From: Trichoplax sp. H2
Taxonomy: Eukaryota
NCBI GenBank assembly: GCA_003344405.1
Contig: NOWV01000156.1
Location: 124,001 to 182,060, forward strand
DNA: 58,060 bases
Direction of reading: 5' to 3'
A model generated the notes under the pieces. It had not been told where the DNA came from, did no database searches, and worked only from the letters and a program-made list of their open reading frames with translations. Made by a program: the position numbers and the translations under genes. The number at the start of each line of letters is the position of its first letter. The stretch's first letter is position 1. Positions 1-24,700 of this stretch are shown here, piece by piece.

Positions 1-526
1 CAATATCCTATGTATCTACTATTCATGGATATTATTGAAATCGATTCTATTGTGGCCTTTTAAGTAAATAAATACAAGCAAAATAATGAATAGAGAGAGT
101 AGAGTAAAAGAATTACAAATGAGATCAAAGAAGGGAATAATCAAGTTTCTATCTTTTGAGATATTGGATAGACTGTTGATTGAGAGTAGATTCAAGGTGG
201 TCATACTTTGATCCAAGGGAAATGGGTTGCCATGCGCTAATGTAGACTACTGTAGGTTGTATTCGATCTATTCGTTTTAGACTTATCCTTGGCCTCGACC
301 AAAGTGTCTTCAATGGGATATAGAGTAGTAAAAGGAAATGGATTGGACTTGTAGCAGGGTGTTGATTTTCACTTGAAAGTTACTGTCAAGGTTGATTTAG
401 GAATCTTCCATGTTTGTTATTTGTTCAAGCTGATTTCGCAATTTGCCATAGTGGAAATATTGGAGGATAGGAGAATATTCATTCTTATCAAGATCCTCGA
501 CCAAACATGATGTGGATCGCAACGAC

Positions 527-1400
527 GACAGTATTGGGAAAAGTAGTCCATCATGTCCATGATAATAATACTACTAAATGTAGACATTTGTTTGATATCA
601 ACATCGCCTAGGGTTACTTGATAGGGAATCTACAGTAAGTCGTTGGAGGATAGGGAAAGATTCATTTTTGTCCACATCTTGGACCAAATAGGATGGAGAC
701 AGTATTGGGAAAAGTAGTCCATCATGTCCATGACAAAAATACTACTAAATGTAGACATTTGTTTGATATCAACATCGCCTAGGATTACTTGATAGGGAAT
801 GTACTTTTTTAGATACAGCAAAGCCGATGTATCTACAGTAAGTCGTTGGAGGATAGGGAAAGATCCATTTTTGACATTTGTTTGATATCAACATCGCCTA
901 GGGTTACTCGATAGGGAATGTACTTTTTTAGATACAGCAAAGCCGATGTATCTACAGTAAGTCGTTGGAGGATAGGGAAAGATCCATTTTTGACATTTGT
1001 TTGATATCAACATCGCCTAGGGTTACTCGATAGGGAATGTACTTTTTTAGATACAGCAAAGCCGATGTATCTACAGTAAGTCGTTGGAGGATAGGGAAAG
1101 ATCCATTTTTGTCCACATCTTGGACCAAATAGGATAGAGACAGTATTGGGAAAAGTGGTCCATCATATCCATGACAAAAATACTACTAAATGTAGACATT
1201 AGTTTGATATCAACATCGCCTAGGGTTACTTGATAGGGAATCTACTTTTTTAGATACAGCAAAGCCGATGTATCTACAGTAAGTTGTTGGAGGATAGGGA
1301 AAGATCCATTTTTGTCAACATCTTGGACCAAATAGGATAGAGACAGTATTGGGAAAAGTAGTCCATCATGTCCATGACAACAATACTAAATGCAGACATT
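527..1400. repeat. Tandem minisatellite (~200-bp unit plus ~119-bp truncated units) in TBC1D9 intron 3
   Basis: GACAGTATTGGGAAAAGT(A/G)GTCCATCAT... recurs at ~527, 697, 1138 and 1341. The sub-unit GACATTTGTTTGATATCAACATCGCCTAGG...GGAGGATAGGGAAAGATCC recurs additionally at ~873 and 992. Confidence 0.95.
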
Positions 1401-3063
1401 CGTCTAATATATCCATAACATCAGGTTTCCTAGCCGATGCTTTGAGGATAGGAGAGTATCCATTGCTGTCAAGATTAGAGACCAAACATGATGTGGATAG
1501 CAAGGACTAGCGGCAAAAAAGAGTGCATGCAATTTATGACAACAAGGTTGCATGCCAGCAGGCTAATCGATGAAAAAGGAAAATGGCGAAGAACAACATG
1601 AATGCAAGTCGTCGTTGTCTTGCGTATGGACATATTCCACTGGACAATATGTTCGCCCAGCCTTTTGAACTTGGAAGCAGACAATTTTAATCAAGTGATT
1701 GTCTGCTATTCATGGATTATAGCAGAAATGCAATACTTGCCAATGTCAATAGTAAGGTAGCCGAGTAGAAGACATAGTACTTCCATTGCGATCTGACAAT
1801 GGTCCTTTCTCAGGAGTATTGGTTGCTACCATGCTTGGATAATATGATCTTGTCCATGGCCGATATGGATCTATTGCACTTTGATATTGATTTCCTCCGT
1901 ATTCAATGGAGTAATTAGTGGATATTATTGACAGTTTGCTATCGTGGGAAAATGGACAACATGCATGTTGGATGTTGGCTAGAATAGTTCATCCATGCTA
2001 GGGATGTAAACTATCATTTTCTGATTGACAATCCAGTGTTGATAGCCATCTATTTAGGAACATTATTGCTGACGCTTTACATTGAATTCAATGTAAATGG
2101 CAGTGGGTAATCAAGGGGTGCAAGATTTTACTTGGCACGTTTTCCTCAATCTTGTGCACCCCTTGGTGAAGGAAAGAGAACGATTTCATTGATCGCAGTA
2201 TGCGCTTGCTATGTTATCGTCTATGTTCTAAACATACAGCGAGAACTTGTAGCCATCGTACCATATCCTATTTTGTTTGGTCTATTTTTTTCCATGTTGT
2301 CAAAGTAAAATGAGGATTTGTAGTCATTCTAACCAGTCGCCATTTACTACGTTATCCTTGCTGTTGTGCATTCTTTGATACTAGGGATTACTGGCTCCCC
2401 CTCCCAAAGAAAAAATGGGCGCAAAATAAGCGAGTAATCAAAAGGAAAGTGAGGACTTGTAGTCATTACAACATGTAGAGAATTTGTTCAGCATGCTACC
2501 CTTGCTTAGTCCTCATTTTGCTAGTCTATTTTCTACCGTATTTTTGGAATCCTTTTGTAAGAGTAAAATGACACTGGATCTCATCCATCGCCATAGGTAT
2601 TTTTGCTGAGTGTGCTATCCTTGCGCACCCATTCATGAATCGATCGTTGAACGATTGATTAATCATTGATTGCAGTTCTAGCTCTACACCACTTATTAAT
2701 CATCCACATTGGCAAGAAGATTATAATTTAGACTTGGTTTGGATCCAATACAACGCTATGGTAGTTTGAATGGGTTAAAATGAAAAAAAGAAAGAAAAGA
2801 GTTGTAATCCATGAAGCATGGATCAATATGGTCTATGTGGAAAGGTTGTCTTCAGCTTGTTATCCTTGTAGGCAGCGGGAATCTTGTTATAGTACAGTAG
2901 TCATGGTTTAGGTTGTTGTTGAATAACCGTTGGGTAGTAGTGGACATGTTTTAAATAATAAACAGGCAAATAGAGGGATACAAAAGATGGAAGTAGATGA
3001 GAGATGAACTCAAGCGTATTCCTCCCCCGTTGAAAAACAAAATTAAGCTCCAAATCGACTTAC

Positions 3064-4335
3064 CATAGCTAATTTCCGTGTTGGTTGTTTGAGATAAAAT
3101 TCGGTAAGGCGCCGGCTAATCCATTGGGCAGAAGGAGAAAAGAATCCATTAGGATTAATGAAAAGATAAACAAATGGATAACGGATCTTGCTGTACTGTA
3201 TGCTAAGAGTCATGGGGAGGATAGCAGTTGTAAACTAAAATTGATTACAATTGATGTTGGCCGATAGAGTACAACAACATTGTGGGCCTTAAATTGTCCA
3301 CCCATAAACAGATACAAGTACCCATCTTGACTAGGCTGCCATCGTGGTTGGAAAGTGGAAAAAAGGTGGAAAATGAATTTGTTTGCTGCATGTTTTCATG
3401 AGGCAGTCTGTAGTAGACTAGTCACGATTGACAACTGGACGATAGGGTTAGCCATGATATCCGCATATCATCCAAGAATGTCAACATGGGCAAGATGATT
3501 TGTGATGAGAATGGATGCTTGCAAGATTGATGTATTTGACTGTAGTAGACTGATAAATTTTCCAATGGATACCTTGCATCAGGCCATCGGCCCGATCGAG
3601 GATAAACTAAGGAAGGAAGGATTGCATCCTTGGGTTGAGATCGTTGATTGCAAGTATGCTGTAAAGTATGCATAATTAGGGCTGTAACTAAAGTTGATGA
3701 TGATGGAAATGGAGCATTTTCCATGTACTTTGCGATGTAAGTGGCTGTTGTGTTGATGATGCCTAGCAATGTTGATGTACGACTACTGTATCCTGCCTGG
3801 CTACAAGAGTTGTATAAAGTGATGGAAAAGATTTACCTTTGAATCAAGGACATTATCGATGGTTCCAATAAAGAGCGATGCCAATCCAGTTGAGCCATGT
3901 CCACGCCGGCGTTGTAAGGTAAAAAAGTGATTGGAACGTTCATTCACCCTAGCGAGGAAGAGAGAGAGAAAGAAAGACCATCAATGCAAGAAGGAAATGA
4001 TAGAAAGACCATCCATGCAAGAAGGAAATGACTGGGCGCAATCATGACTATCCTAGCTACAATCTTGTACAATGATGATTTCATCATGGTGGATCATCAT
4101 GGTTGTCGTGACGTCAAGGCAATGAAGAAGAGATCAATTGGCCATCATGACATGTCTACTTACTTTAGGATGGAGACCTTGGCCCCCCCAAAAAAATATG
4201 CTAGACCAGATGGGACAAATATCAATATTGTCACCACTGATGGTGGCAGAAAAGGCAACAACAACAACATGCCATCTTGGCATCTACCTACCATAATGCA
4301 TTGGTTAATAACACTTCATCTGGTTTGATCCACAT
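3064..4335 (-). CDS. TBC1D9: TBC1 domain family member 8/9 (Rab-GAP) ortholog, first three coding exons; gene probably continues past the left edge
   Basis: Exons 4335-4292, 3948-3837 and 3115-3064 have GT-AG ends and compatible phases. They splice to [63 protein letters not shown], matching the TBC1D8/9 N-terminus ([32 protein letters not shown]...GLAGLLVGTLDVVLDS...APYRILYQT). Not in the ORF track. I could not find exon 4 in 1-3063. Confidence 0.9.
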
Positions 4336-4469
4336 AGCGGCGCCGGCCGATCGTGATGCAAGAGGTGGAGAAAGCTGCAATGCCAACGATAACACACAAA
4401 GTGCAATACACTACAAGCAAATTGGAGAAGAAAACATGGACAAGCTAGCAACAGCAATAGCAGCAGGTT

Positions 4470-5520
4470 GGTTTCCAGTCCAACTTGCTAACAAGGATGG
4501 GCAATGACTGAATGGGGCCAATTGGCCGACGGACTTTCTCCACCTGTCGACTGTAGACTGTCGATTGTAGACTGTAGACTGTACAGTACTGTAGACTGTC
4601 GATTGTAGACTGTCGACTGTAGACTGTAGGCTGAAGACTGACGACTGTAGACTGTAGACTGTAGACTGTCGACTGTCGACTGTACTGTAGACTGTAGACA
4701 GTAGACTGTAGACTGACGACTGTAGACTGTAGACTGTAGACTGACGACTGTAGACTGACGACTGTAGACTGTAGACTGAAGACTGAAGACTGTAGACTGT
4801 AGACCGAAGAGTTTCTTGGTTTCCAGTCCAACAACTTGCTAGCAAGATGGGCAATGACTGAATGGGGCCAATTGGCCGACGGACTTTCTCCACCTGTCGA
4901 CTGTAGACTGTCGATTGTAGACTGTAGACTGTACAGTACTGTAGACTGTAGACTGTAGACTGTAGACTGTAGACTGAAGACTGATGACTGTAGACTGTAG
5001 ACTGAAGACTGTAGACTGTAGACTGAAGACTGAAGACTGTAGACTGTAGACTGAAGAGTTTCTTGGTTTCCAGTCCAACAACTTGCTAGCAAGATGGGCA
5101 ATGACTGAATGGGGCCAATTGGCCGACGGACTTTCTCCACCTGTCGACTGTAGACTGTCGATTGTAGACTGTAGACTGTAGACTGTAGACTGTCGATTGT
5201 AGACTGTAGACTGTAGACTGTAGACTGTAGACTGTCGACTGAAGAGTTTCTTGGTTTCCAGTCCAACTTGCTAGCAAGATGGACTGGACAATTGGCCGAC
5301 GGACTTTCTCCGACTGTAGACTGTAGGCTGTAGACTGAAGACTGTCGACTGAAGAGTTTCTTGGTTTCCAGTCCAACTTGCTAGCAAGATGGGGCCAATT
5401 GGGCCGACGGACTTTCTCCGACTGTCGACTGTACTGTACTGTACGTACTGTAGACTGTCGATTGTAGACTGTAGACTGTACATTGTAGACTGTTGACTGT
5501 ACTGTAGACTGTAAACTGAA
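4470..5520. repeat. Composite satellite: (ACTGTAG)n arrays alternating with a ~70-95-bp conserved unit (5 copies)
   Basis: Heptamer ACTGTAG (variants ACTGAAG, ACTGTCG, ACTGACG, ATTGTAG) forms arrays of variable length. The arrays are separated by GAAGAGTTTCTTGGTTTCCAGTCCAAC..CTTGCTAGCAAGATGG...GGCCAATTGGCCGACGGACTTTCTCC at ~4470, 4806, 5053, 5241 and 5351. Degenerate GTAC/CTGTA-rich sequence continues to ~6390. Confidence 0.97.
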
Positions 5521-6124
5521 GAAGACTAGAGACCTCTCGATGAAGCTAAGTTAGCTAACCATGTCATACAGTATCGTGTTGAGTGGAGTACAGTACTGTA
5601 CTGTACTGTACACGTCACATTACTGTACATTGTACACTGTCCGTTGTACTGTAGACTGTTGGCAATTAGCCTACAGTACACTGTACTGTACACGTGTACT
5701 TTCTCCGACTGTAGACTGTAGACTGAAGACTATAGTACTGTAGAGACTCTCTATGACCATGTCGTATCGTGTTGAGTGGAGCTCGTCACATCATTGATAC
5801 ACAGTACTGTACTGTACAGTAAAGTCTACTGTACTCACTGTAGATGGTACACCAATAGTGTAGCAGTGTACAGTACAGTACTGTACCCTACAGTACGCAC
5901 AATCGCACATTATGCATTGGGCGAGACTTGTATCGTAAGCGTACTGTACGGATTGTACTGTAGTGGGTGGTGACGGAAAGGAATGTACAGTACATGTAAG
6001 TTGATACGTTGAAATAGCCAACAGAACGAATTTTCGATTTCATTATTTAAGAAAGTATTATTTTAGCCAATAAAAGATGATTTTATGTTTTTGGGTAACT
6101 ATATCCCACAGTATGGACTGTATG

Positions 6125-6504
6125 GTAAGTCTATCAGCTCCTTTCTCCACTTGGATCCTGTCTACACACTACAGTCACAAGTACTGGATGAGAAGTGGGG
6201 ACTACCCCCAGGATGGATTGACCCTTCCTGCAGTCTACAGTGTACAGTACTGTATTCGTCTCCAAGTCCCTGACTGTAACCTGTACACTGTACGCTCCAC
6301 ACAGTCAGAGACGATGGATGGACAGATCCAATCTGACCAGTACAGTGTACAGTGTACAGTACGCCATTCACAAGTACGGGTGTACTGTACAACCGCAATC
6401 CCCCCTCCCCAACCGCTACTTCCTTGATGTCAGCCAAGCCTTTTACTATAACATCGTCAGCCATGTTTGCTACCCTTGATGACATTTGCAGCCTATTTGC
6501 CTAG
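6125..6504 (+). other. Probable 5'UTR intron of the MINDY gene
   Basis: Strong donor ATG|GTAAGT at 6125 and acceptor TTTGCCTAG|G at 6504, upstream of the ATG at 6644. No transcript evidence. Confidence 0.45.
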
Positions 6505-6643
6505 GTGGAAAAGGAGACAATCAATCCATTGGTGTCTCCCACTCTTAAGCCATTAACTTTGATGGGATAGAATGCAATCCAATTGACCAAATTGATTGGA
6601 AATCATCTTCTATCCATCCTATTGGTGATTATCAAGGCCCAAC

Positions 6644-9600
6644 ATGATGGAAGAGAGTGCACACTGTCATCGCCGTGATCCACTACAAAATGCTACCGCC
6701 AATGATGATCAAACTGCCAGACCAAAACAACTGGAGAACGATCAGCAGCAAGATGAAGAGAGGCAAATAGCCCATGTCGACGTACAACAGACGAATTTAC
6801 TGGATAACCAAGAGAAGGATGCTATCCAATCGTCTATAGACACCCATCAAGTCAGTCATGATATTAGCAAGCTCAGTGGACAACAAGATGATGATGAAGA
6901 TGGAGACGATGCAATCATGCTCGATATGGCCATGGATCAAGCCATCGATGAAGCTTTCAACATCACCTATCCTGATCTATCCCATCAACAGCAGGATCAG
7001 ACACCCATGGATTCCACAACGACAACTCAAGCAAAAGAATACACTCCTAGCGATATCAGTCATCAAGCCCAATGTCGTGATGATGAAAATGTTACCATGA
7101 CTGTAGTTAAAAATGAAGAAACAATCTATCAGCCATGTCCAAGCGATCCCAACCATCAAACTCTTCAAGACAACGATGAAGAAAACAATCAGCCATGTCC
7201 TAGCGATCCCAACCATCAAACTCTTCAAGCCAACGATGAAGAAAACAATCAGCCATGTCCTAGCGATCCCAACCATCAAACTCTTCAAGCCAACGATGAA
7301 GAAAACAATCAGCCATGTCCTAGCGATCCCAACCATCAAACTCTTCAAGCCAACGATGAAGAAAACAATCAGCCATGTCCTAGCAATCCCAACGATCAAA
7401 CTCTTCAAGCCAACAATGAAGAAAACAATCAGCCATGTCCTAGCGATCCCAACGATCAAACTCTTCAAGACAAGGATGAAGAAAACAATCAGCCATGTCC
7501 TAGCGATTCCAACGATCAAACTCTTCAAGACAAGGATGAAGAAAACAATCAGCCATGTCCTAGCGATTCCAACGATCAAACTCTTCAAGACAAGGATGAA
7601 GAAAATAATCAGTCATGTCCTAACGATTCCAACGATCAAACTCTTCCAGACAAGGATGAAGAAAACAATCAGCCATGTTCTAGCGATTCCAACGATCAAA
7701 CTCTTCAAGACAAGGATGAAGAAAACAATCAGCCATGTCCTAGCGATCCCAACGATCAAACTCTGCAAGCCAACGATGAAGAAAATCAACCTTCACCCAT
7801 GGATCCAATGGTAGCTACCAATTTCTATCTAATTAAATGGATCCAATGGAAAGAGACGTCAACACCTATAGTCACACAAAATATTAATGGACCTTGTCCT
7901 CTTATTGCTATTATCAATATTTTATTATTAACGCGAAAAATTACTTTCTCTGCTGAACGAGAGTATATTACCAGTGAAGAATTGATGGAAAATTTGGTAA
8001 ATACATTACTCACACTACGACCAAAGGTAAAAATCATGTCATTTCTTCATTTTTTCCCGCTCGCTCTTCTCTCTTGCTTTCATCTACTGTATAATATACA
8101 AAATCCTCCTCCATTATTTGTTTCCAACGTCATGATATGAAAGGAGATTCCACAGCAGGAGATAGAATCCAACACTACATTACAATAGAAATAGACAAAA
8201 AAAATCAACTTTGACTATTTTTGGAAAGGAAAGACAACAATATACAGTACAAACTAATACCATGGGCTGATGGATCGATGATATCCAAATAGAGCGTACA
8301 ATCAATCGTTCAAAATCATCTTTTTACCAACTCGATCTCACCCATCTTCTACAGTACTGTAGTTTGATTAGCTTGACTAGACTGTCAATCAGCAAGATGA
8401 TGTACTTTGTAAGGATTAACACCTAGATACCAACCAATTGAGATATTGGATACTATAGTATCGAACAGGACTAGATGGATTCCCTCAATCTTTCTATTAG
8501 TTCAAGTTATAAAATTGTTGGATTGGACCGTCAATCTACAATATACTAGTAGAAGGAGCCAAGTACAGTAGTATCATATCGTTCCATTGCGTTGCTAATG
8601 AACGACATGATATCAATTCGGATGAGAAATAACAATCAACCACAGGCCGAAAATGTGGCAGTCTGAAAAAGGATAATTGATTCTATCCATCTCTAGGCTT
8701 CCTACCCATTGTTCTACTTAAGGTAAAAGCGTTTAGCTAAATCATCAATCACCAGCATGATAGTACAAGGATTAGCAACTACTGTAGATACTAGACAATG
8801 GATCTTGCCTGGTGTCAAAAGGATATTTAATCAATTCCTGCTATCCTTGCAGTCGTAGTCGTGTCATAACACCGTTTGATTGAATTGTAAGCTAAAATGA
8901 CAATATCGAATTCAGCTCGGAATTAGCTCCCAGCTACAAGCCGATTATGATATTGGATAGAATAGTATTGAAAAGGATAATCACAGTATGAAATAATGTA
9001 AGGGTAAGGACTAATTGATTCCTTGAATTTTATAGCAATCATGTTAGAGGTGATGGAATTCGACTTGACTGTAAATCAACCATGTATTGCTGCTACAAAG
9101 GTTGTTAGGCAGGCACTGCAGACAGTAATAACGAATACCGGATGTGATCGTCTGAAATGGATTCCTCCAATCTAATAACTATCATGTTTGACATAAAAGA
9201 GTTAAACCTGACTGACTGTAAATCAACTGCAGATTAGGACAGAGATTAAAACTATAGACTCTAGACAGCAGCAATTCATCGATGTTGAATGCAAGAATAA
9301 TGTTATGTCCATTCTTTCCATCATATGGCTATCATATTACACTGAACTTCATCGTCATGCAACAGTATGATGGTGCAAGAGTGCTACAACTAGGCACAAT
9401 TGGTGTTTCGCATATTGAAATAAATAAGTTAGTCTATATCATGTTGAGATTCATATTCTGTAGCAGGGATGATGGCATCAAATATAATGTTTCACTTGCC
9501 ATGTGCTATCGCTAAACCCTTGATTTCCTTAGGATTATCGAAATTATTGTATCAAAGAGCTTTAACCCAAAACTAGGTTAAAATGTTTATCAGAAACAAT

Positions 9601-12600
9601 TCGTGCAAACAATATTTTCTAGACTGGATAGTTAATATTCGTATAGTAGATACGATGGTATGGTATAGTATGGAAAAGAAGAAACCAGCTTTTCCATCTT
9701 TGTAGTCGTAATCATATTACGACACTGCTTATTTTTCAATGTAATATCAGTCAACACAAGAATGAATATTTAGACACAAACCAATGATGATCTATTATCG
9801 AGACACTGCATAGTTAACATACTCGTATAATGGATGCGATAGTATGAAAAAAGAAGAATCGTTCTTTTCCATCTTTGTAGTCGTAATCATGTTACGACAT
9901 TACTTATTTTTCCATGAAATATAAATCATCACAAGAATGAATATTCACAGACACAAATCAATTATCATCTGTTATTCTAGACTGGATAGTTAATACTATA
10001 TATACTGGTACAGTGGATACGATAGTATGGAAAAAGAAAAATCGATCCTTTCCTTGCTTTCTAGTCGTAATCATGTTACGATACTGTTTCTTTTTCGATA
10101 TGATATCAATCAACACAAGAATTAATATTAATTATGATCTGTTATTCTACACTAGATAGTTAACATACTTGTATAGCGGATACGACGGTATGGAAAAGGA
10201 TAATCGATCCTTTCTATCTTTGTACTCATAATCATGTTACAACACTACTTCATGATTTGACGATGTAATATAACATCAGTACAGTACAACGATTAATATT
10301 CAGACACAAACTAATTAGGATGCGGTTATCTTTGGCTTATGAACTCATATTAGCTCATTCAATCGAGATACGAATTCAAGATTGTTGATCTCATAATGCA
10401 AAAATGAATGATTTATATCCAAATGCTTTATTTTATAGGCATTCGAAAACAGCCTTGATTACGATCAAAATGTCAACGATGCTATCTCATCACTTAGTGT
10501 ATTAGAAACTGGTGTCGATATTAACGTCAAATTTGGAGGGTAAGTCATTCAAGACAGAGAAATTTTCAATAAGCTACATGAAAGTTTATAAACCAATATT
10601 TTGAAATCGGTATATTTTAAATGTAGTAATAATTCAATTTATTTTACCCTAATCATTTCGCCTCCATTAGAAATATCTACTCATCTCAATCGATAATCAT
10701 ATCGGAGATTAGATTCTTAAACTTTCAGAATCCATTTCTGTCGCAAAGGATCACTTCAACTCATTGAGCTATTCTTTACGATAAAATTGATGTAATGGAC
10801 CATCTCAGTCTATATAAGTACTAGTGTTGCCTAACTAATTCTTCGACTAGCTAACAGGTCATCTTGTAAAATAGATTTTAGTTCATTTAGTATTTCTATC
10901 AGCATCGAACGCGTTATCAAGTCTACGAATCCCAAAATATTTACAGCAGAAGTAGTGACCAGCAAGTAGGCGACGCAAAAAATGATCAGGATAATTTATT
11001 GTCAGCAATTTACTATTCTAATTTCCTGTCTTAAAGCCGACACTATTGTAATTTATTGTATGATTAGTCTATCCGCTATCTTTCAAAATAGCATATCACA
11101 TTATAGAGCACTTGGAAAACTGTATCGATTAGTACACAAATATTCCAATAATCAACTAAATATCAATCGTACTTTTTCGGCCCTATGTATCCGTCCTAAT
11201 TAATGCGATGAAAAAACAACTGATTGCCACTGAGATAGCAATAGTGAAGAAATTCTGAGTTAACTTACTAGTCTCCTAAAATAAGCTACACTAGAAAACG
11301 ATTGTAGCTACAATATAGTTCTCCGATGAAATATAAAACTAACACTGATACAAATCCATCGAATGGAATAATTAATTAGTAGTATTTTGTTGCATTAAAA
11401 TTATACTACGGTATAAAAAACCTACACTACACCTAATATACTTGTAAGTAATAAATCATGATATCCAAAAAGAGAAATAAACTAACACATAAAAGTCAAA
11501 ACGTTTCAGTAGTCCTTGCAAATAGATTACATTTATCATCAACAACTTCATTTTCCAATTCATACCATTACCATGTGATAGTTTCAATAGAAATTGCTTG
11601 ACGTAGAAATAGTTGATAGCAAAAAATACTACAGTATATTAAAGTAATTGTTCTACTTTGTAATTTATTATATTAAATACTAGCATAAAATCTTCATGGT
11701 AATACATGTAGTCTTAACATAACTAACGTCGCACTTTTATCCTGTAGTATCAATCAGTTTGAATGGACGTGCAATTTGATCGTTTTTGACTTACTTGATA
11801 TCAACCTTTATCATGGATGGCTAGTCGATCCACAGAATCAGGAAGAAAAATCTATTATCGGAAATCGTAGCTATAACGAGCTAGTCGAAATGATTATATC
11901 TTCAAAGTCTAGCAATGATAGTAGCCGAATAACGGAAGGTATCTAAATTTAGAATTGGTGCTGACCCACATTATCGGCGGATACAATTGAATGCGTCCAT
12001 CAACTTGCTTCAGTTTTACACTCTAAGCTATTTTACTTTAATAAATTTTAGGTTTAATTGCGGAACAATTCCTCAACAGCACTGCCTCTCAATTGACTTA
12101 TCATGGTCTCTATACGTTATACGAAGAATTAAAACCTGAACAGTTGTGTGTATTATTCCGAAATAATCATTACAGTACTCTATATAAGCATAAGGTAAAA
12201 TTATCACGTATTCTAAATTCTGAAAACAACTGATATATCTTTGCGATATCCTATCAAATAACTTCATTTGACTATCATTATCCAACAATGACATTATTTT
12301 ATTACGTATATGCTACGTCCTTAGGATGAATTATTCATTCTCGTTACTGATATTGGCTATTCCACCGAAAAAGAAATTGTTTGGGAAACACTATCCAATA
12401 TAGAAGGAGATTCATCACTTGTCAATCACGAATTTAAAACTGTTAGCTCTCAGGGTCGAACGGAAAACTTTGATGTAAACCAGGCAGCACCAGTAGATGA
12501 ACAACGGCTCATAGAGTCAGATATAAATAATGGATCAACAAATTTATCTATCCAGTATGATCCGAATAATGATCGAGTATCACAAGAGAAGTTAGAGTAA

Positions 12601-13370
12601 GTCCAAAATATCTTAAAATTCTTTGCACTAAATTATCAATTACCGTGTTATGCTGCCTGCAACAATTTTTTCCATGATCCTAATATGCGTTGTCGATTAT
12701 CTGCATTTACAGTCATATGATCGCTTTACAAGAGCAGAAGGAACTTGATGGACAAACTACTGGAATAAGTGAATCAGTGCCACATAATGATTCAACCGTT
12801 GTGCCTAAAGCATTACCTGAGACTGTTCCTACGCAAGATTTTACCACTACTGATACAGTGTGTCAAGGAGATGAGTTAAGCAGGTATGTTCTATTTATTG
12901 ATTGTTAGCACATGAATGATAATAAGTTCACCATGCATGACTGTCCGGTAAAAGTATACATTAAAGTAAGACTTTACTTTTTTCCATTGATAAAGTGAGG
13001 CATTAGCATGGCGACTTCAATTTGATGAATATCATCATACTGAAACGACCTCAAAACGCAGCGCTTTACAAAGTAATCCCATAACGGAAATGCCTCCAGC
13101 TAGAGCAAATACATCTTCACGGGGTCAAATGCGAGCTGAAAATCCGACAGTGCAGGCGTCATCTCAATCTCGCCCTGGACAAAGTCAATCTACAGGAAAA
13201 CGAAGCGTAAGATTTTTAAGAAATATTCTTTGTACAGCACTACTTTAATGCCATCAATTGCTTTTAGAAATTGCTATTCTTGATGTTTCTATAATTCAAC
13301 AATACAAAGGGTAGGCTAATATTGCTGCGTCTTTTCGTATTTATAGGATGGCAACTGTTGTATCTTGTGA
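6644..13370 (+). CDS. MINDY2: Ubiquitin carboxyl-terminal hydrolase MINDY-1/2 (FAM63-like deubiquitinase), 8 exons
   Basis: Exons 6644-8026, 10439-10539, 11748-11938, 12052-12194, 12325-12596, 12713-12883, 12996-13206 and 13347-13370 splice in frame. Motifs: TQNINGPCPLIAIINIL (catalytic Cys), FDLLDINLYHGWLVDPQ, LFRNNHYSTLYKH (catalytic His), LVTDIGY, VWETL, two MIU-like helices (DHMIALQEQ, SEALAWRLQFDEY) and C-terminal CCIL*. Probably the single ortholog of MINDY1/MINDY2. Confidence 0.95.
7113..7792 (+). repeat. 60-bp coding tandem repeat (~11 copies) in MINDY exon 1
   Basis: Lines 7141-7741 align at an exact period of 60 and encode QPCPSDPNHQTLQANDEENN and variants. Confidence 0.98.
9610..10320. 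repeat. Degenerate ~175-bp tandem repeat (~4 copies) in MINDY intron 1
   Basis: TTCTAGACTGGATAGTTAA...GTATGGAAAA...TAGTCGTAATCATGTTACGAC...ACACAAGAAT recurs at ~9618, 9798, 9975 and 10145. Confidence 0.85.
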
Positions 13371-14848
13371 AGTACGTAAAACTCACACTTGTTTACTACA
13401 ACATGGAGTATATTTAATAAGTTGACTTTACATAATTCGGTACTATATTCTTACTTATTACAATCCGATTTCCAGTTTCGTAACTACATGTGATGGTGAT
13501 TTACAATGTATGTCTAGAAGTATGCATAAACGACTTAATTTTTCTATAGACCTTGCTTATGAAGTATTTTTGACCTTTATATAAAATGAATACATATATC
13601 TATATAAAATGTACATTAATTAAGATCTATTACTTTGAGATGAAAGAGTACCTCCCGTATGGAACCAGTGATAAATATATATTTTACATATTAACGTATA
13701 TAAATTCTATGTGCCACTACGTGATATATTATGGAAAATCTATAAAATGTAGTATCGTGTAAATTAAATATTTGTAAAAGCTAATAAGAGGAACTACGAT
13801 ACCATATCTCCGTTAATATAATAATGTTGTACTTACGTTTATTCGAAGTACATATACATTCTATGTGGTGTACGAGTTCACTATAAATATATGCAATAAT
13901 TTACTATTTAATTTATTCAATGAAATTAAATGAAGTAATAATTACTTCTTGTATTAAAAAGTCACTTTTATAAGTTCTATAGTGTACTTGGATTCATTTT
14001 TACAAAACGTCATGACGTGATAAATGCCGCATGTATTATATATAAGTTTCGGTAATTTTTTTACAGCAACTGATGTACAATTTGCACCATTCCATATATC
14101 ATACACAATCCAAGGCATTAATATTTTACTTTCGTATGGATACTGTTAAGCAGACTTACGTCGGATCATACTACATAGCGCGTTTCTATTCGGAGATAAT
14201 GCGTTGGTACATCACTTAATCTGACGGGTTATAATTACAACTGATCAAATACTAATATTCAAGCATGCTGTCCTGCACGCCTGCGCTAGTTCAATGACGA
14301 GAAAAATAAGAAATTGTTTAATACGCGTACAGTACAATCTGTTTCTATATCTTAATTACTGCATATGATTTCCACATAACATTGTCATTCCCATGCAAGG
14401 AGACACCGATCAGGATTAGTTCTTCATAACATTTATTCAGACAATCTAATAATTTATCTAGTCAATACTAGACATCTTTTGTACTGGTTATTTTGGTGTA
14501 GAAAATTGCAGATAAAAGAAGTTACTATTTAATCCCCTATGTTGAGGAAATTATGAAATGTTATTTGCAATACCAGTATAACGACAACCTTTAAGCAGCT
14601 AAGGGTTCAATAAGGATACTATCGTACTGTTTCAGCGCTAATACTATGTGAATGAAGTAATTTATACTACAGCGTAAGCTCTTTATTTCTAGATGGTAAA
14701 ATAGCTTATACAATAAAATTATTTATAAGAAATAGAACAGAACAAGTAAGGTAACATAAAGGGATCTTGTTAGCCTAAACTAAATGGAAATTCTGCAAAA
14801 TTTGGAGAATTATTGTTAACAAACATTAAGTTGACAAAACATATTAAT

Positions 14849-17800
14849 TTATGCCACACGTATAACACTATCAAGAAGGGACACGTAATTTGGATTAAAT
14901 TCCTCAACACGCCCGCGCAATATTTTAGGGCCAAAATTCTTGCTAAAAAATTGTAAACATTCACGAGCGGCGTGAGACGTCAACGAGCATTCCGAAGACT
15001 GCAGTAAATAAAGAATCATATTTTGCGATATATTAAAATTAGTTACAAGAAATGATGCCTAACTGATATCATTTAGACAAGGCTATATTATGTTTACCAA
15101 GCTCTCAAACACAATGTCCATGAAATTCATCCAGTAAGGCTTAAAAACACGCTTTCCTAACTTTTCAGCAATGATAGGTAGCTATAGCGATAAAAACTGT
15201 CATTGTAATATCTGCGTATGAAATTGTTTTAGCTAGGTATAGCTTGTACATGGAAATTTATTAAGCATAATTTCTTACCTGTTTGCAAATGGTTTCGTAG
15301 AAAAATACGTGCTGAGAATACTGTTTGTATCTACCAGCTTCAGCAATCGCGGGTAACAACTTGCTTATGTTCGTGTGGAAGGTAGACACTCTGCTTAATT
15401 CAGCTATAAGGTGAACACAGCTATGCAAAAAAAATATTTTTTTAAAAATAGCTATAAACTAAAATGCTAGCAAAGGCTAATAATACGAATATTAAAGCTA
15501 AAGAGTACTAACCCATCTGCTAGTTCCCAAGGCTCAGGTTGCTTGTAAAATTTTGACATTTCGTTCTCAGTATCACCTTTTCCCAGCTTAGGAGCAAGAG
15601 AGCCACATGAATATGTCTGTAATGTTAACGAATTTGAGATCTCAAATTAGAACGCTAATAGGATATGTCTCACCATAATACATTTTATATATAAAATAGC
15701 AAACCATGCGATTAGTATGTAAATCTGCTTCATTATCACGTATTCTTTTTGCAACACTGTACACAGCAGGGCTAGGATCCATTGACGAGTATCTGATAAT
15801 TAATATATATATAATGGTATCACAAATTTGCAATACTAACCGTACTTAGTGCAAATAGTTATTACCTTTTGGCATCAGCTGGTTGATCCTTCATTTTAGC
15901 TAAGCCTTGGATAATTGTTTTCTCAATAACAATGTATTCATCGTTTCCTAAATAAATTTTATAATTATAGGAAAAATTAGCAGCTACGATCATCTTGTGG
16001 ATAACAAAATTTAGGCATTTATGACTATTAACTAACCGTATACTTCTGCTACTTTGGCTAAAGATATAGCAGCGCCTTGCCGAACGGACTGTATACTGTC
16101 CGATAAGTTCTTAACAAATAAATCATGAAGTTCACTCAGGGAAGGTCTACGAAGAGTGGTAATAAAAAATGATAATTGGTTAAGATTGTGGAATGAAATC
16201 AAATTATTACATAAAAAGGATGAGTTGGTAAACCGGCAAGGTTCCGGAAAGCAGCTTATAAAATTTCCACAAGCTAAACATGCAGCTGAAAACAGTAAAC
16301 ATTAACATAAGCAAAAATGATCGATATTTAAAAGTTTCAAAAATGCAATACATCTATAGCTGTTGGAGTCATCAACGAAAACTTACCATCTCTAACTGGC
16401 CAACTTTGATCTTTGAAACATACCAGGAGAGTAGCAATCAATTGTTGCACGAATGGATGTAGACATTCGGGAGAAATCTAGATTAAATTAATCAGTTTCA
16501 TCGTTATACTACATTCTTTATATTAACTATGATCTCGAATAGTAACTTACTTAACTGAACGGAGTATATTTACATACTGTACGAATATATACGGCATAAA
16601 TAAAACGGCATAATTTCCAATTTCTAAGTGATTTATTTCCTGTAGCTGGGTTGACTAATGTTTTGACTTACTTTTTGACCAAGTTCCGCTATACAAACAC
16701 AAGCAGCTTCACGAACAGCATGATTGTCAGCATTGGTTTGCTGCACATAAAACTTTACCTAGAAGAGGTTATTATAATTATTATTTATTAATCTAGCCAT
16801 AATAAAATGCATTCATAATCACCTTATTAGTATATATATATACTGTAATTCATAGTTGTTGAAATTGATTGGTTTGCATCAATGTTATAGCATACTTACA
16901 AAGTCCGCTACGTACGATTCTACCAAATTTCGCCCATCAGGTCCTACAGTTAATCGCCAATTTTCTTGTGAATAATTTCGTACACCTTCAGCGATATAGT
17001 ATCTACAAGGTAAATAGTGATAATTTTTTGCAATCACGTCGTGTACAATTTATCATCGTAAGTTGGTAATGATCAGATTCATATCCATATTCGAGCAATC
17101 TTTAGTTAAATTGTTCATTTTTCTAGATAAGTCGACTATACTATTGTTGCGGATACCTATTCAAGCACATTGGTGGTAGAATGCTGGGAAAATAACGTTT
17201 ACTAGCATCAACATCCGTAAGGATAGTAAGCATTTGGCGAGTGGCAATAGAAGCTGCCAATCGTACCTGATTGATAGAATAATAGGCATAGATTTTAATA
17301 AAAAATCAAAAACAACTTGCTAAATAAAAAATTACTTTGGTAGGTAGAATGTAATTTTGTCTTCATATACATATGTCATAACGTCATACCTGGCTCCAAT
17401 TATCGGATAGTCCAGCGACCAAAACGTCGACAAATTGCGTACCTTTTTCCCAACATTTTGTTTCTTTATAGCCGGGTTGCAGTGTACCTTTCTCTATTAC
17501 ATTGCCGTTAGGTTGATAGTTAGAAGAATTGATCAACTACGATTACTGTATATGCAAGATGATATTTCATACACAATTAGATTGACATGTACCGTTTGAT
17601 CCTAATTCACTTTTGATGAGTACACCGAGTGTTCGAAATCCAATTTCCCTTACACATCGGTTAGTATGTTTTGTTGTTTCAAATAGTAATTCCAAGAGTT
17701 CATTATTTATGTACGGATGAAATTTCTTACCACAACCATCAATCATGCATTCTAAACACCTTGATGAGGAATACATGGAGAATAAGATTATTCTATTGTG

Positions 17801-19057
17801 TCTATGCAAATTATTTGTAACCTGTGGTCCATGATATTCACAGATAAAATAACCATGTTACTAATGTCAGTATTAAATTCTTAAGCAATGTATAATTTAC
17901 AGGGAGCGTAATCTATAGAACGTCAAAATGTATACAATTAAAGAAAATGAACGATGCCGATAAGTTCATATCAAAATGAAACGATACATGTGTTGGTTAG
18001 AAATAACTTGACCTTTTTGCTATTCTTTAAGGCGTTTGATTTTGTTAACAACACAAATAAATAACGAATAAAGATTAGTAACACTTACTGCATGCCTGTT
18101 TCTAATGATTGCCAACCAGCGGTATCGTGTAATATTTTGGAGATAAGATTATCATCCTTTGATTGCGGCTGGATATTGGTTTACACAAATAGATGCGTAC
18201 ATAAAAAAGAGAGAGTATGTTATGTCATTTACAATTTAAAGTGTATTTTTATCGTGCGCATCCGTTAAGCAATGGTAGACGTACTTCATTTTTGATATCT
18301 TTATCAGGAGATTTTGGTAGCATTTTATCCTTTAGTTGTTGCATGGCTAAGGCGTCTAAAAGTTCCATTGAACGTTCCATGTTATCACGAATGGATTGCA
18401 ATACTCCATGTTGAAAGTGTTGATAAGCTACATGGCCAAGACGTTTGCAAAGTGCACCTGCCACCTCACCTATTGTAAATGATGCAAAAAGAAATAATTT
18501 AGTGGTGTCATTTATAAATGGAAAATTGTTCACGTCATCTCGAATAGTCTCTACATCATCAATAGTGCTCCTGTTGAAGTCCATGGAAGTCTATCTACGC
18601 CATGGTTATCGCATAAAGCGTGTCATTTCAAACTGTACGAGTCGATTTCAATGGCATCACATGGATAATTAACCGCGTAAGCCATTGAAGGGATTGACTG
18701 TGAATAAGGAATTCATTTTTGATGCTATATTATCATTTTTTATATCGTACCTGCCGCAAATCGAACTCTTGCTTCGGAATGTTGAAGTAAATGGATGCAA
18801 GAGTCTTGAAGGTGACCAATGAAATCTTGACTACATTGCGGTATATGTAAAAGTAGCAATTTACTTGCTAGCAGTCCACCTTGACATGATTCCCATTGGT
18901 CTGTCGCTTGTATCAATGTTATTAAGCTATTTTCAACATGGGTGATGTCATTGAGGCCAAGGTTAATTTGATCGGTCAATTGGCTTAATCCTTTATCACG
19001 ATCAAGCTTGTTGTGACTACTGAGTAAGGTACACCACTGATCACGATTGGGATCCAT
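14849..19057 (-). CDS. Uncharacterised HEAT/ARM-repeat protein, ~17 exons
   Basis: Exons from 19057-18751, 18469-18285 and 18168-18089 through to 14998-14849 splice in frame with GT-AG ends. HEAT-type segments include HSEARVRFAAGEVAGALC, HTNRCVREIGF, GLSDNWSQVRLAAS, ADNHAVREAACVCIAEL, FKDQSWPVRDAACLAC and LSDSIQSVRQGAAISL. The protein ends ...SLLDSVIRVA*. Confidence 0.88.
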
Positions 19058-19984
19058 TTTATTTCAGAATGATCAACTTGAATTTATCTTTGAAGATAAT
19101 GAAATGATGAAGAAATTATGAATCGTTATCGTCGTTCTCTACGATGAGAAGGACTAAGCTCATCGATTGAATATTATCCGACTACCAATACTGTACTGTA
19201 CAGTGCTGTCTAATAGTAGTATGCCGTCGATGAAACACTATTGATGCTGTGGTCAACAACAACATTTCATCGAGTAGAATATTGTACAGTAATGAAGACT
19301 TGACGATGGCTATTTCGGCAAGGCATGATTTATTCATAATGAACACATCATGGACAGTAGGCATCCAAATTGATGACAGTAGAATAACAAGTTGCAGTCC
19401 ATTGTCCGGACGATTGCATTCAATCTCGTTGGACTAGTACTGTGCCTTGGACAATTTGTTGTTTATACTATCATCCACTGGGTACATCAACACAAATATG
19501 AAATGATCTGATGAAATGCATCTTAATCTATTCTAAACTGGTAACACATGCCTTGGGGAAAGCAAGGCTCCATTGAGCTGGTTACGTATGATGATTATTG
19601 TAATCTAGTGGTTGCTTACCAACAAAGTTTGATGATGGACTTGTGCAATGTTGTACAGCGTGTTGAATTGACAGATTTGCTTGTCGATTGAATCCAGTTC
19701 GATGCTACAGTTCAGGTATTCTCGATAGCCAAGTAATGCTATCTGCAATAGAGCTCAATGCCAACTGTCTACGAGTAGAAGCTATCCAAAATATCAAATC
19801 AATCTTGAATAGGAGCCATTCCAAGTTTCCTGCTGACAATGCAAAGTTGCAGAATACCGTCCACCTAGTAGAAGCTGGTTGCTGAGTCAGCAACGTTTGC
19901 TATCTTGACTGGCTCAGGCTACACTCGATGGAGTGTTTGAGCAGCGAGCTGATGCGGCCGGCTTGTAGGACAATAACAATCGTG

Positions 19985-21110
19985 TCCATTGTACGGTACA
20001 GTACAGCAGGTCAAGGGGCTTCATTTTACAGTGTATGTACTGTATGTGTCGATAGGGGCAAAAGTGTAATGGATCAACTCTCTTAGTTGTACAGTATAGA
20101 AATTGATAATTGATCGAGACATAGTACAGTCTAGTGAAGTCCAATGGACGTCCTGTACAGTACTGTACAATGTACTGTATGGTACTGTACCTTACAGTAC
20201 GATGTACTGTCGAAAAATGGTACAGTACACTGTATTGTACACTGTACACTGTAGACAGGGCAGTACTAATACTATAGTGTACAGTCGTCTCCGGCAAATT
20301 GTAATTAGATACAGTATATTTTACTACCTATTGAGACTACTATACAGTACAGTATACAGTACAGTACAGTCTGTGGTTGCCGACTAGTTTATGGCGAGCT
20401 GGATAAAGGCTATGGGCAAAAGTGAGTGTTGACGAGTTGATACAGTACAGGTGAATCCAGTCACAACTGTCTCCACTGTACAATACACTGTACTGTACAG
20501 TCCTTCTCGAACAGGTTAATCCAGACACAAGTGAGTCCAGTCCAGCTCGAACAGTACCGTAGAGTGTAGACTGTAGACTGTATGTACTGTACAGTAGGCT
20601 ATACTGCACAGTGCACAGTACTGTACTGTACAGTAGCACAACATCCAGTTCGAACAGTACTATACTGTAGAGTGTAGACTGTAGACTGTACAGTATGACA
20701 CAACATCCAGTTGGAACAGTACTGTAGACCATAGACTGTAGACTGTAGACTGTATGTACTGTACTGTAGGCTATACTGCACAGTGCACAGTACTGTACTG
20801 TACAGTAGCACAACATCCAGTTCGAACAGTACTATACTGTAGAGTGTAGACTGTAGACTGTACAGTATGACACAACATCCAGTTGGAACAGTACTGTAGA
20901 CCATAGACTGTAGACTGTAGACTGTATGTACTGTACTGTAGGCTATACTGCACAGTGCACAGTACTGTACTGTACAGTAGCACAACATCCAGTTCGAACA
21001 GTACTATACTGTAGAGTGTAGACTGTAGACTGTACAGTATGACACAACATCCAGTTGGAACAGTACTGTAGACCATAGACTGTAGACTGTACAGTGTACA
21101 GTACTGTAGG
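19985..21110. repeat. GTAC/ACTGTAG-rich satellite with a 172-bp higher-order repeat (~3.3 copies, 20540-21110)
   Basis: GGCTATACTGCACAGTGCACAGTACTGTACTGTACAGTAGCACAACATCCAGTTCGAACAGTAC... starts at 20597, 20769 and 20941 (period 172). Each unit has two related halves (CAACATCCAGTTCGAAC / CAACATCCAGTTGGAAC) and ACTGTAG runs. A degenerate flank covers 19985-20540. Confidence 0.95.
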
Positions 21111-21584
21111 TCACGACATCCTGCGGAAAGTATCGACCGTCGGCGGCTGAAAGCGACGCACACCTGACCTCAAGCCTGCAACGCCAACCCTTGCAGGACG
21201 AACTACCTGATCAAGTCATCCTCCAGGCGAGTGATCACTAGGCCGCGATCGAACGTTCCTTGTCCGTCATACCACTGTTTGTCTATTACTGAGCGTCAAC
21301 TGCGTTGATGACGTACGTGTCGAGGCCCCGGCAGCCCCCCCCCCCCCTCAGTCTGTATAGTCGTGGTTGGGAGGTAAGTGGAACATTGATCAGCAGCAAG
21401 TCGTCGATGCTCAAGCTAAAGTGGAATAGCAGCAATCCATCTTCAACTTTGCAATCGTGCTGATTTTCATCGGTTATCTCCTTCTTCTTCAACAACGACT
21501 GTGCTATTGGCTGACATTATCCACTAGTGGAAAGCAACACGTCGCGAGCGTCAGCAGGCTGGAAGCAATCTGGCCAGCGATCGG

Positions 21585-21711
21585 GTAAGATGACCACGGG
21601 AAAGAAGTGGAGAAAGGATTGAAATGATCCATCATCCATGGATAGAATAGAATGAGTCAAGATCGATGGATAGCAGAGAAATAGTCATCATCATTCTTTT
21701 CTTTCATCTAG
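21585..21711 (+). other. Probable 5'UTR intron of MED25
   Basis: Donor G|GTAAGA at ~21585 (an alternative G|GTAAGT lies at 21374) and polypyrimidine acceptor TTTTCTTTCATCTAG at 21711. There is an in-frame TGA upstream of the ATG at 21789. Confidence 0.45.
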
Positions 21712-21788
21712 GTTGGAGACCATTCTATTGGCCTTGGATACGATCATCATCATATTGACTTGCAAGTGGTAACACATTACTACTTGCA

Positions 21789-24700
21789 ATGGCGGATGTT
21801 GTATTTGTTGTCGAAGCGACCGCTAATTTAGCCGAACATTTCACTCAATTGAAAGAATCCTATTTGCTACCAGCAATGGAGTAAGTAGACAGACTTGATC
21901 TTTTATCCAAGTCAACATTGCTTGCATACTTGAGCCACCAAAATAACCCTTGACTATGGCACATGTTGTTTGAATTGTCCTTTTGCCAACCTCGTACAGT
22001 AGTGTACAAGATTTTTTTTTTTCCTCCTCCCCCCCCCTTTACCTTCACCGTGATCCAATCAATACCATCTTCAATATGGATTGATTTTCCCAATACCTTG
22101 TAGCAAACTCTATACTGTACTTTGCCGCAATAGAATCGTTAGTAAACCTCATTTTCAATATTACTCTCTTCCTTGCTTGCCGATCCTTTCGACATGGACT
22201 ATTCTACTCGATAAAGCAATCGCCGAGATCATTCCTAAATATCCCTCTCAGTCTTGTTGATAACGATTGTTATCCATCCATGCTAGCCATAATACGATCG
22301 TATCCAGTTCAACCTACTGTTTGCGTATCGATCCCTGACTTTCTATCACCACCAACCATGGCTGCAGCCAATGCTTCATCGGCCATCGTTTCGCTTTTTA
22401 GAATTCCATTTCTGAACTGTATTAGCCATTGCAGCCATCATCTTCCTCATAGACTACTTTCATCTCCCATCCAACTCCTTTATCCATTGCAAGTTGATGT
22501 CTTTTCCTCAACGCTTCTCTTTTCCCCCCCCCTCAAAAGTAGTCCCTGCCATTCCTTTCTTCATGGTTAATCCGACCGACGCCATTGCATCCTATCGACC
22601 ACAAGATAAATGCCCTTTCCATCCCCTAGTTTGAAAATATAATGCAATATCGAACGACAATTCTTTTGAATTGTATTGTGCCACACAGATTAGATGATGA
22701 TTTACCGTAGATTCTCAATCGTCTTCAATCATTCTAATAGAAGAATGAGGAAATACCAGTTCAGTTAATATAGAAAATTATCCACTAAATGGTGTTATCA
22801 CTTTGTTGCTGTAGTTTGCTTGATTGCAAGCGATATACCCTAACAGAGCATGATGATTTCACCTTGGTCTTCAAATGGCAACTCCAATAACTTGACTGTT
22901 GACAAAGATTTCCCATCAATACTATTGAAAATGCCCTTCCATCGATGCAATGCAATGCAATGGATATTGCAATCCATCATTGGACTCCAATAACAAAGTT
23001 TGCAAACGTTCGCAAGGTCTACAGCCATCTCTAAGCTGTATCATGAGAAACGATGGTCGGGTTATATCGCTGCCTTCATAAATTCATTAATCGAAACATC
23101 ATTGCCATTCCATTTTTATAAAGCGCAAAAAAATGGTCCATCTGCCCCCCTCTGTAAAATGATCATCGTCCAACTTTGAAATCAGTAACTAACTAATGTC
23201 AAAGTATCCCCCTATTCAAGATGGCGGAAAAAAATTAAAAAAACAGCGTCAATGTCTCTCCACTGAGTTATTTGCTTTTTGCCGATCACCTAGCAAATAC
23301 TGTCCATACTTTTCAAACCTTTTCTATCGCTCTGTTCCATTTGCCTTGATGAATATGCAATGAATTGGACGTTAAGCCTAATGCGTGATGATTCATATTA
23401 TCTTCCATTTGCTCGTGTTAAAAGGACATCCTTATAAACGATCAATGCCTGTTGCTCAAAATGAATCATTACTATTTTGGGGCAGGCCAAATACCCCTTT
23501 TTGGGCAACGGCCAAGATATCATGTATAAGCTGATCGATAACCAATCATCGTTATTCAACGATACGACGATATCATCATCCAGATTTCTACATAGGCATC
23601 TGTACGTATTTCTTTTTCTTCCCTGTTTTTTTCAACCCATGGAAAACACCTTGATGATGATGATGTGAAAAATGCTTAAATCTTGTTGTAGTATTGGATT
23701 GTTAGCCGTCTTTCAACTGATGCTGAATCACAAACACTCTAAAGCCAGTTGGATTTCAAAGCTATCACTATATCCGTATCTAGTCCAGCCTTATATTGAA
23801 TAATAATCCCCAAACGGATAACCCCCAATCAGTTAAATAGATGAACATCGATATTTTACATTCATCTCTGACTTCCAATATGGATTTGATGATGACGATT
23901 CAAGACGCATCCATGGACTGGTTTAGCCCAGCCTTATTTAAAATAAAATTGGCAAAGATGATAATGATGCTGGTAATTAAAGAATCAATTCGCCTACGTC
24001 CAATCGATTAAATGTGAAAATTTCTCATTCGTCTCCCTTACACATGCCTACCTAGACGGCATTCTAGTGTTGTGTGTATATATATATATTCTGAATAGCA
24101 CAAAAAAGCACATCGGTAATACTGTCTTGCACTGACTTGGAACATTGCAAGTTTGTCAACTTTAATGAAAGATACCCCCACCAAAAATGATATTCCGATC
24201 TATTCCCATCCAAGTGTCCACTCTTAGCCAATACGATCATCATCATCGAGTCGTTACTGATTGCACTAGAATGATCCGTGTCATTTCCATCTTCATGATA
24301 TGGCACAGTAAAAGAATAAAATCGCTCTTAATGGTCAAATTGGGCATAAAGATGTACAGCTGCTAGCCATATTTAAAGCCGGTCCATACATACTCTAACC
24401 GCATTGAAAACTTTTTGCACTAGTTCTCTCCTGTTACAAAATAGAACGCATTCAGTTGAAATGTTCTTCTTATTAGTCTACTCTTTCTTTTCTTGCTAGG
24501 GCAGTTTCTTTTTTATTAATAATACCTTCAAACTCGTCCACGCTATCGAACATTTTTCACCCCACTTTGTTCATTGCTATCATGCCAATGCTGAACGGTA
24601 TTCTATCACCTGACATTTTTCTTATATTTCCTCCATCCTTTCATGTAACTATCGAATACTCTCGTAAAATCAATTGCCNNNNNNNNNNNNNNNNNNNNTA

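Follow-up and report, generated by a model that had tools for sequence, protein, structure and literature searches.

Repeated motifs at placozoan promoters

Two arrays of tandem repeats built on the five-base core ACTGT, or its reverse complement ACAGT, lie between divergent genes in the stretch of the Trichoplax sp. H2 nuclear genome analysed here (58,060 bases of contig NOWV01000156.1; hereafter the window). The closest described systems come from Trichoplax adhaerens. The Chimaera network, applied to Micro-C maps of this species, found a "repeating motif ACAGT" and a companion ACGG motif that was tied to insulation and was said to belong to the transposon element of Kim et al.; all the motifs found significantly altered the predicted contact maps when they were inserted in silico (Nucleic Acids Research, 2026; PMC12817080, accessible sections). 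Kim et al. reported promoter hubs that bring together roughly a third of the genes of T. adhaerens, for the most part housekeeping genes, and found that loop anchors share a common sequence motif, the letters of which are given in figures only; GP1 promoters frequently hold Mutator insertions, the terminal inverted repeats (TIRs) of which carry the loop-anchor motif, and the transposon annotation of that study was made with EDTA (Kim et al., 2025; PMC12221973, accessible sections). Such repeats are not mentioned in the accessible sections of another placozoan study (Najle et al., 2023; PMC10580291). Placozoans have thousands of promoter–promoter loops, and neither a protein factor nor a verified DNA element has been described that makes them. 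Outside this group, short reiterated motifs are familiar from the GAGA-type (GA)n microsatellites of Drosophila promoters and insulators and from the tandem repeats of yeast promoters, which are associated with nucleosome-depleted promoters, multivalent platforms and variable copy number. The arrays of the window resemble these as short reiterated motifs at promoters, but they differ in motif and lineage, in their much greater length (1–2 kb), in containing palindromic GTAC tracts next to an asymmetric heptamer and in having no known binding factor.

The Chimaera motif has its counterpart in the window, which holds repeated ACAGT/ACTGT in DNA of the T. adhaerens group, which is the same species group, the same five-base core and the same repeating character (PMC12817080). 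In the accessible sections of that article the motif consists of a logo and one sentence, without heptamer or GTAC arrays, higher-order units, a position between divergent transcription start sites (TSSs) or a strand bias, and the pattern assigned to ACAGT, insulation or another, is given in a figure. We infer that the logo derives from arrays like those of the window, which give the published motif a physical identity and a route to an architectural factor. With the hubs of Kim et al. the arrays share a placozoan host, a location at promoters, an association with housekeeping genes and a lineage-specific repeated sequence, which in the hubs is tied to three-dimensional contacts; unlike the motif of Kim et al., which the accessible text attributes to transposon TIRs (PMC12221973), the arrays show no TIR or transposase. 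An earlier reading of the window from its letters alone (the sequence-only reading) knew of no description of these repeats. This is no longer accurate for the core motif, which is in print (PMC12817080), but no description of the arrays was found in the literature on Trichoplax and placozoa, a search that did not extend to the PDF supplements and Supplementary Data 1 of Kim et al., which may bear directly on the matter. Searches by motif letters returned, among the matches listed, primers or unrelated sequence only. Within the literature searched, the ACAGT core is already known, whereas arrays with this higher-order organisation, placed between divergent promoters, are not described.

Two independently amplified arrays on one core

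Across the whole window, ACTGTAG runs and GTAC/ACTGTAC-rich tracts are concentrated at 4544-6400 (locus 1) and 19960-21110 (locus 2), the two divergent intergenic regions in which the sequence-only reading had noticed them. The double heptamer ACTGTAGACTGTAG, with at most one mismatch, has 72 matches in the window against 0.01 expected from shuffles; every one falls within 4550-6248 or 20241-21092, and the plus strand carries 70 of the 72. Exact ACTGTAG occurs 80 times on the plus strand and 13 times on the minus strand, and 70 of the 80 plus-strand copies (51 at locus 1 and 19 at locus 2) lie inside the two ATG-to-ATG intervals, together 5039 of the 58060 bases (8.7%). The density of ACTGT is 28.4 per kb inside these intervals and 1.43 per kb outside them, a 20-fold difference; the corresponding values are 12.5 and 1.3 per kb for ACAGT and 22.4 and 2.87 per kb for GTAC. 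The 5039 interval bases contain 206 ACTGT/ACAGT cores, whose spacing peaks at 5, 7 and 14, and the cores cover 34% of the bases in 4544-6400, 43% in 19985-21110 and 2.4% elsewhere. The absence of such arrays from the rest of the window also holds, as none of the remaining 1-kb bins contains more than three ACTGTA on either strand. No Rfam model matched the window at its gathering score. That the repeats largely fill both intergenic regions was an overstatement in part: they occupy about 1857 of the 2308 bases from ATG to ATG at locus 1 but only 1150 of 2731 at locus 2, where they nevertheless take up some 85% of the spacer between the RNA ends described below.

The two loci are organised differently. 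At locus 1, a higher-order array (4455..5420, plus strand) consists of five copies of a spacer of 70-94 bp, called S (4455-4548, 4806-4898, 5056-5145, 5242-5312 and 5346-5420; all five recovered on the plus strand by motif search), each followed by a heptamer run, and these runs differ in length. For locus 1, Tandem Repeats Finder gives period-7 arrays at 4544-5057 (72 copies), 5141-5245, 5312-5355, 5420-5522 and 5707-5744, together with a 110-bp unit repeated 2.4 times at 5202-5468. Between 4544 and 5522 the ACTGTAG runs, with the variants ACTGTCG, ATTGTAG, ACTGAAG and ACTGTAC, are nearly all on the plus strand (51 exact copies at locus 1 against 4 on the minus strand), and the variants ACTGTCG, ATTGTAG and ACTGAAG are grouped in blocks. 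Behind them follows a degenerate tract of GTAC, ACTGTAC, GTACAGT and (GTACA)n on both strands (5523..6400), self-complementary and with inverted pairs. Locus 2 has the reverse order: a degenerate GTAC/ACTGTAC/(GTACA)n tract on both strands, likewise self-complementary with inverted pairs (19960..20555), precedes a plus-strand array of a 172-bp higher-order unit (20556..21108; 3.2 copies with 98% matches), which includes ACTGTAG runs, ACTGTAC palindromes and the two short unique spacers TCCAGTTCGAAC and TCCAGTTGGAAC. Many short GTAC-type rows of period 5, 7 and 12 surround the main arrays. Single-strand folding compared with shuffles separates the two kinds of sequence, the pure heptamer tract being less self-complementary (z = +2.7) and the GTAC tracts strongly self-complementary (z = -2.4 and -3.7 at locus 1, -4.4 at locus 2); the fourth spacer copy, S4, folds into a hairpin some 30 nt long (z = -4.2).

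The repeats are thus micro- or minisatellites with higher-order units, and they form one family of tandem repeats on the core ACTGT/ACAGT that takes the form of a 5-mer (GTACA), of 7-mers (ACTGTAG and ACTGTAC) and of GTAC palindromes of 10-12 bases. Alignment of the spacers of locus 1 with those of locus 2 gave just a short TCCAGT/CAG stretch in common and no convincing homology. Since the spacers cannot be aligned, the two arrays were amplified locally and independently, each into its own higher-order units, and the sequence-only reading was right that they are not one duplicated insertion.

Spacer S carries a CCAATTGG palindrome and, on the minus strand, the 8-mer CCGTCGGC, which has seven exact matches in the window against 0.10 expected, at three independent sites. 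The first comprises all five S copies (4525-5410, minus strand), where it points to the left gene of the pair; the second (21137..21144, plus strand) lies 29 bases past the array of locus 2 and about 130 bases before the first RNA end of MED25, to which it points; the third (50847-50854, plus strand) is near a third GC-richer stretch. The 8-mer contains CCGT/ACGG, and S contains GACGGAC; this is a possible tie to the motif of Kim et al., which PMC12817080 equates with ACGG in its accessible sections. The density of ACGG/CCGT over the whole window revealed no ACGG array. Each S copy also holds the palindrome GGCCAATTGGCC, a CCAAT box read on both strands, and ATTGG/CCAAT boxes lie near the RNA starts of MINDY and MED25 (6568-6600, 21508-21514 and 21727-21733); these boxes may be NF-Y sites.

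Position between divergent transcript ends

Contigs of four runs were aligned to positions 3000-22900 of the window, among them X18 (RNA) and X6 (DNA of another Trichoplax lineage). The RNA contigs give bounds on transcript ends and cannot show transcription starts or strand. At locus 2, the HEAT-like gene on the minus strand has a non-coding first exon (19620..19915) in which the RNA contigs stop at 19741, near 19853 and at 19915, the last in X18, and a GT..AG intron in the 5' untranslated region (19088..19619), whose joint 19087->19620 is present in two RNA runs with side lengths of 122 and 234; a small ACTGTAC cluster lies inside this intron at 19188-19210. On the other side, MED25 has a non-coding exon 1 on the plus strand (21272..21570) with RNA starts at 21272 and about 21315-21353 (runs X16 and X18), and a joint 21570->21711 that defines the intron 21571-21710 upstream of the ATG at 21789. 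As the outermost RNA ends, 19915 and 21272, are 1357 bases apart, the array of locus 2 fills about 85% of the spacer, and 45-160 bases of unique sequence are left on each side up to the RNA ends. At locus 1, the last GTAC cluster is about 143 bases upstream of the start of the MINDY RNA contig (6535), and an RNA contig over the left gene covers 3837-4320. Each array occupies the spacer of two divergent core promoters, with the RNA ends as bounds rather than mapped TSSs, and is flanked on either side by about 70-200 bp of unique promoter sequence. A higher depth of X16 near the promoters was not used, because contig depth cannot rank the parts of a gene.

A dispersed family

In X6, the single-copy depth is about 40 and the array bins sum to 330-1390. 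The X6 contigs aligned on 3000-22900 number 2812, of which 1903 have a partial fit only; at 5610-5612, 6340, 21086 and 21104, 50-106 contigs each run into sequence unlike the window, and these continuations agree among themselves at only 0.36-0.41, which corresponds to many different flanks. Since the same repeats are joined to unlike flanks at many loci, they do not reflect a duplication, and the ACTGT/GTAC repeats are a dispersed, genome-wide family typical of the lineage. X6 also differs from the window by small indels inside the array of locus 1, at 5146 and 5173, and its short-read contigs break within the heptamer arrays. In X18 introns leave hardly a signal (0-1 in 8312-10303), yet its contigs that bear the repeats reach depths of 58-308 and run on into unlike sequence; some transcripts of this genome therefore include members of the family, which cannot be assigned to these two loci.

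Relatives of the arrays were also sought in wider collections. Among the matches listed from a metagenome scan for (ACTGTAG)3 there were no placozoan relatives; 114 of 115 had at most two ACTGTAC/GTACAGT, and none had the spacer 11-mer. One rich metagenome locus (L050, 1-2479) combines an extended (GTACA)n array with a tandem repeat of 27 bp and with lengthy tracts of the trinucleotides ACT/GCT, and it was rejected as an unrelated, microsatellite-rich eukaryotic contig. An 18-mer of spacer S gave 15 single matches in bacterial and archaeal genomes, all in unrelated bacteria and close to the number of about 17 expected by chance (2 x 596e9 / 4^18). A 311-aa frame through the array of locus 1 was compared with a protein database and gave 12 heptad-like matches from unrelated sources, none of the 12 with S-derived peptides; the window's own frame is absent from that database, and the search is therefore uninformative on the dispersal of S.

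A candidate promoter platform and alternative explanations

The arrays may be a cis-element that is reiterated to form a platform within divergent promoters of housekeeping genes, a reading that we favour tentatively and at a little below even confidence. Both flanking genes that could be identified, MINDY and MED25, serve general functions of the cell. The arrays would act as a multivalent platform to which a sequence-specific protein, probably an architectural one, binds; they may also hold the spacer nucleosome-free, and in either case they would separate the two promoters, adding to the insulation and to the promoter-contact signal of placozoan housekeeping promoters. Slippage and unequal crossing-over would renew the arrays while the core motif is retained. 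That the repeats are lineage-specific and associated with promoters, as the sequence-only reading proposed, fits the dispersed family, the RNA ends at locus 2 and the ACAGT report in T. adhaerens (PMC12817080, accessible sections).

Several observations weigh against the platform. The association with promoters concerns two loci visible in one window, and the 5' regions of two other genes of the window, those of UMP synthase (UMPS) and of a G-protein-coupled receptor (GPCR), lack the ACTGT family. The arrays are young and unstable, with 172-bp units 98% alike and the X6 indels at 5146 and 5173, which fits neutral turnover equally well. The metagenome scan found (ACTGTAG)3 at no fewer than 115 loci on unrelated contigs, and the heptamer is therefore not peculiar in itself. 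The published ACAGT motif is a model-derived logo without a factor, the accessible sections do not state the outcome of the shuffled-motif control, and the motif of Kim et al. is equated there with ACGG and not with ACAGT (PMC12817080).

A bolder form of the platform reading, which we consider improbable although worth stating, is that the ACTGT/GTAC satellites and not a transposon would be the true determinant of placozoan insulation and hub contacts. They would be bound by a lineage-specific architectural protein, copy number would set contact strength, and some of the "Mutator TIRs" annotated at housekeeping promoters would be these palindromic arrays. If this were true, there would be an animal genome in which the three-dimensional promoter architecture is built on fast-evolving satellites. 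Should the arrays be the DNA side of the loop system, (ACTGTAG)n and (GTACA)n could serve as bait for the protein, the arrays would offer a natural copy-number series for the relation between reiterated sites and insulation, and they would provide a check on the published transposon explanation.

Among the alternatives, the one that survives best is also rather unlikely in our estimate: the arrays would be neutral micro- and minisatellites, generated by slippage and unequal exchange, that persist in the few long open non-coding stretches of a compact genome and have no sequence-specific function. The identity of the higher-order units and the indels between two Trichoplax lineages fit this explanation, as do the occurrence of variants in blocks (ACTGTCG with ATTGTAG, for example), the unrelated tandem repeats found upstream of UMPS and the GPCR and in introns, and the wide spread of the heptamer trimer in unrelated environmental DNA. 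On the other hand, neutral turnover does not readily account for a five-base core that recurs in both arrays despite their independent amplification, and also at many loci elsewhere, nor for introns and long AT-rich non-coding stretches, about 50 kb of the window, that are without the family; moreover, a model trained on Micro-C data of T. adhaerens singled out repeated ACAGT (PMC12817080, accessible sections). If the arrays are neutral, they would still be a warning that palindromic promoter satellites can mimic TIRs and drive motif discovery from contact maps.

A transposon origin, in which the arrays would be remnants or internal expansions of Mutator-like elements (MULEs) or of miniature inverted-repeat transposable elements with a preference for promoters of expressed genes, as Kim et al. 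propose for their motif, appears distinctly less probable than neutral turnover. It draws on the Mutator insertions in GP1 promoters with the motif in their TIRs (PMC12221973, accessible sections), on the presence of GACGGAC in spacer S and of CCGTCGGC beside both arrays, given that ACGG is assigned to that element (PMC12817080, accessible sections), and on the dispersal of the family. The sequence-only reading had named a dispersed transposon with termini as an outcome that would speak against it; the family is indeed dispersed, but neither 4000-6900 nor 18900-21900 has a perfect inverted pair with a length of at least 20 nt, and the imperfect pairs in both regions consist of the GTAC repeat motif itself. 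None of the 14 array open reading frames (ORFs) of the two regions contains a transposase (MULE) domain; they gave only 16 low-complexity, coiled-coil-like matches, of which 15 are under the curated cut-off and the remaining one, SlyX, scores 31.4 against a cut-off of 30, without a matched stretch. There were no candidate termini at which target-site duplications could be read, and the flanks of one inverted pair (I23, 20156/21108) are unlike each other by eye. All five S copies are in tandem and in a single orientation, an X6 contig across an S junction has a depth of 48.7 against a single-copy depth of about 40, and the higher-order units at locus 1 bear no relation to those at locus 2. A structure-based annotator, such as the EDTA used by Kim et al., could call GTAC palindromes TIRs. 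Neither region shows transposon hallmarks, which does not speak against an old or non-autonomous element.

A role at the level of transcripts is very unlikely. Here the repeats would be initiator-like CAGT arrays that spread transcription starts, or terminator-like, UGUA-rich RNA elements that stop upstream antisense transcripts. The repeat contigs of X18, with their depths of 58-308 and little intron signal, do place the family in transcripts somewhere, but contigs cannot show starts or strand, and the uniquely fitting RNA pieces stop outside the arrays at both loci, 70-160 bases away. Least probable of all, with hardly any weight in our judgement, is the reading of the arrays as traces of a centromere-like domain, a replication origin or a hotspot of recombination; it has in its favour that tandem repeats often mark sites of these kinds and against it the length of 1-2 kb, the position between expressed genes, the many loci of the family and a GC skew without any switch specific to the arrays.

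Flanking genes and other tandem repeats

The gene names given by the sequence-only reading held in part. MINDY and MED25 are supported by Pfam, the HEAT-like gene is a real spliced gene without a Pfam match, and Pfam does not confirm TBC1D9. Exon 1 of the MINDY deubiquitinase (6535..8140, plus strand, ATG at 6644; PF04424) begins with the RNA contig start of run X18 (depth 242.7), and a fragment of the protein is 97% identical to TRIADDRAFT_18339 of T. adhaerens. MED25 has the Med25_VWA and Med25 domains. The HEAT-like gene is spliced on the minus strand with 13 GT..AG introns in two RNA runs, and its tested exon ORFs have no Pfam family match. The left gene of the first pair has a putative first coding exon at 4291..4335 (minus strand, ATG at 4335, 15 codons, GTAGGT splice donor), which is presumed, from these 15 codons, to belong to TBC1D9; the name is unverified because Pfam gave no match, and no GRAM or TBC domain, in the 57 minus-strand ORFs of 1-4335.

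The two genes whose 5' regions lack the family are on the minus strand. UMP synthase is identified by Pfam from its OMPdecase exons (40966-41391), with a 5' end placed near 43.9 kb by composition only, and the GPCR is a single exon (48208-49329) for which the best relative with a name is a receptor of Trichoplax sp. H2, paralogous and 44% identical. Unrelated tandem repeats lie just upstream of both, a 130-bp unit repeated 4.2 times at 43959-44511 for UMP synthase and units of 44-50 bp repeated 3-5 times at 49354-49670 for the GPCR. It may be common in this genome for genes to be preceded by tandem arrays, beyond the ACTGT family. Additional tandem repeats are found to the left of the first gene pair (754-1388; units of 119 and 203 bp, the 119-bp unit containing one CTACAGT) and in a MINDY intron (9613-10129; 175 bp).

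Within MINDY exon 1, an in-frame tandem repeat of 60 bp (20 residues) occupies 7128-7785 in 11 copies with 95% identity, the unit being NQPCPSDPNHQTLQANDEEN with variants, and it sits upstream of the catalytic domain. The MED25 gene contains two assembly gaps of 20 N each (24679-24698 and 25054-25073). A 31-bp tandem duplication at 3970-4031 is 24 bases shorter, with two further gaps of 2 bases, in an X18 RNA contig and in an X6 DNA contig, a length difference that reflects either copy number between lineages or the assembly.

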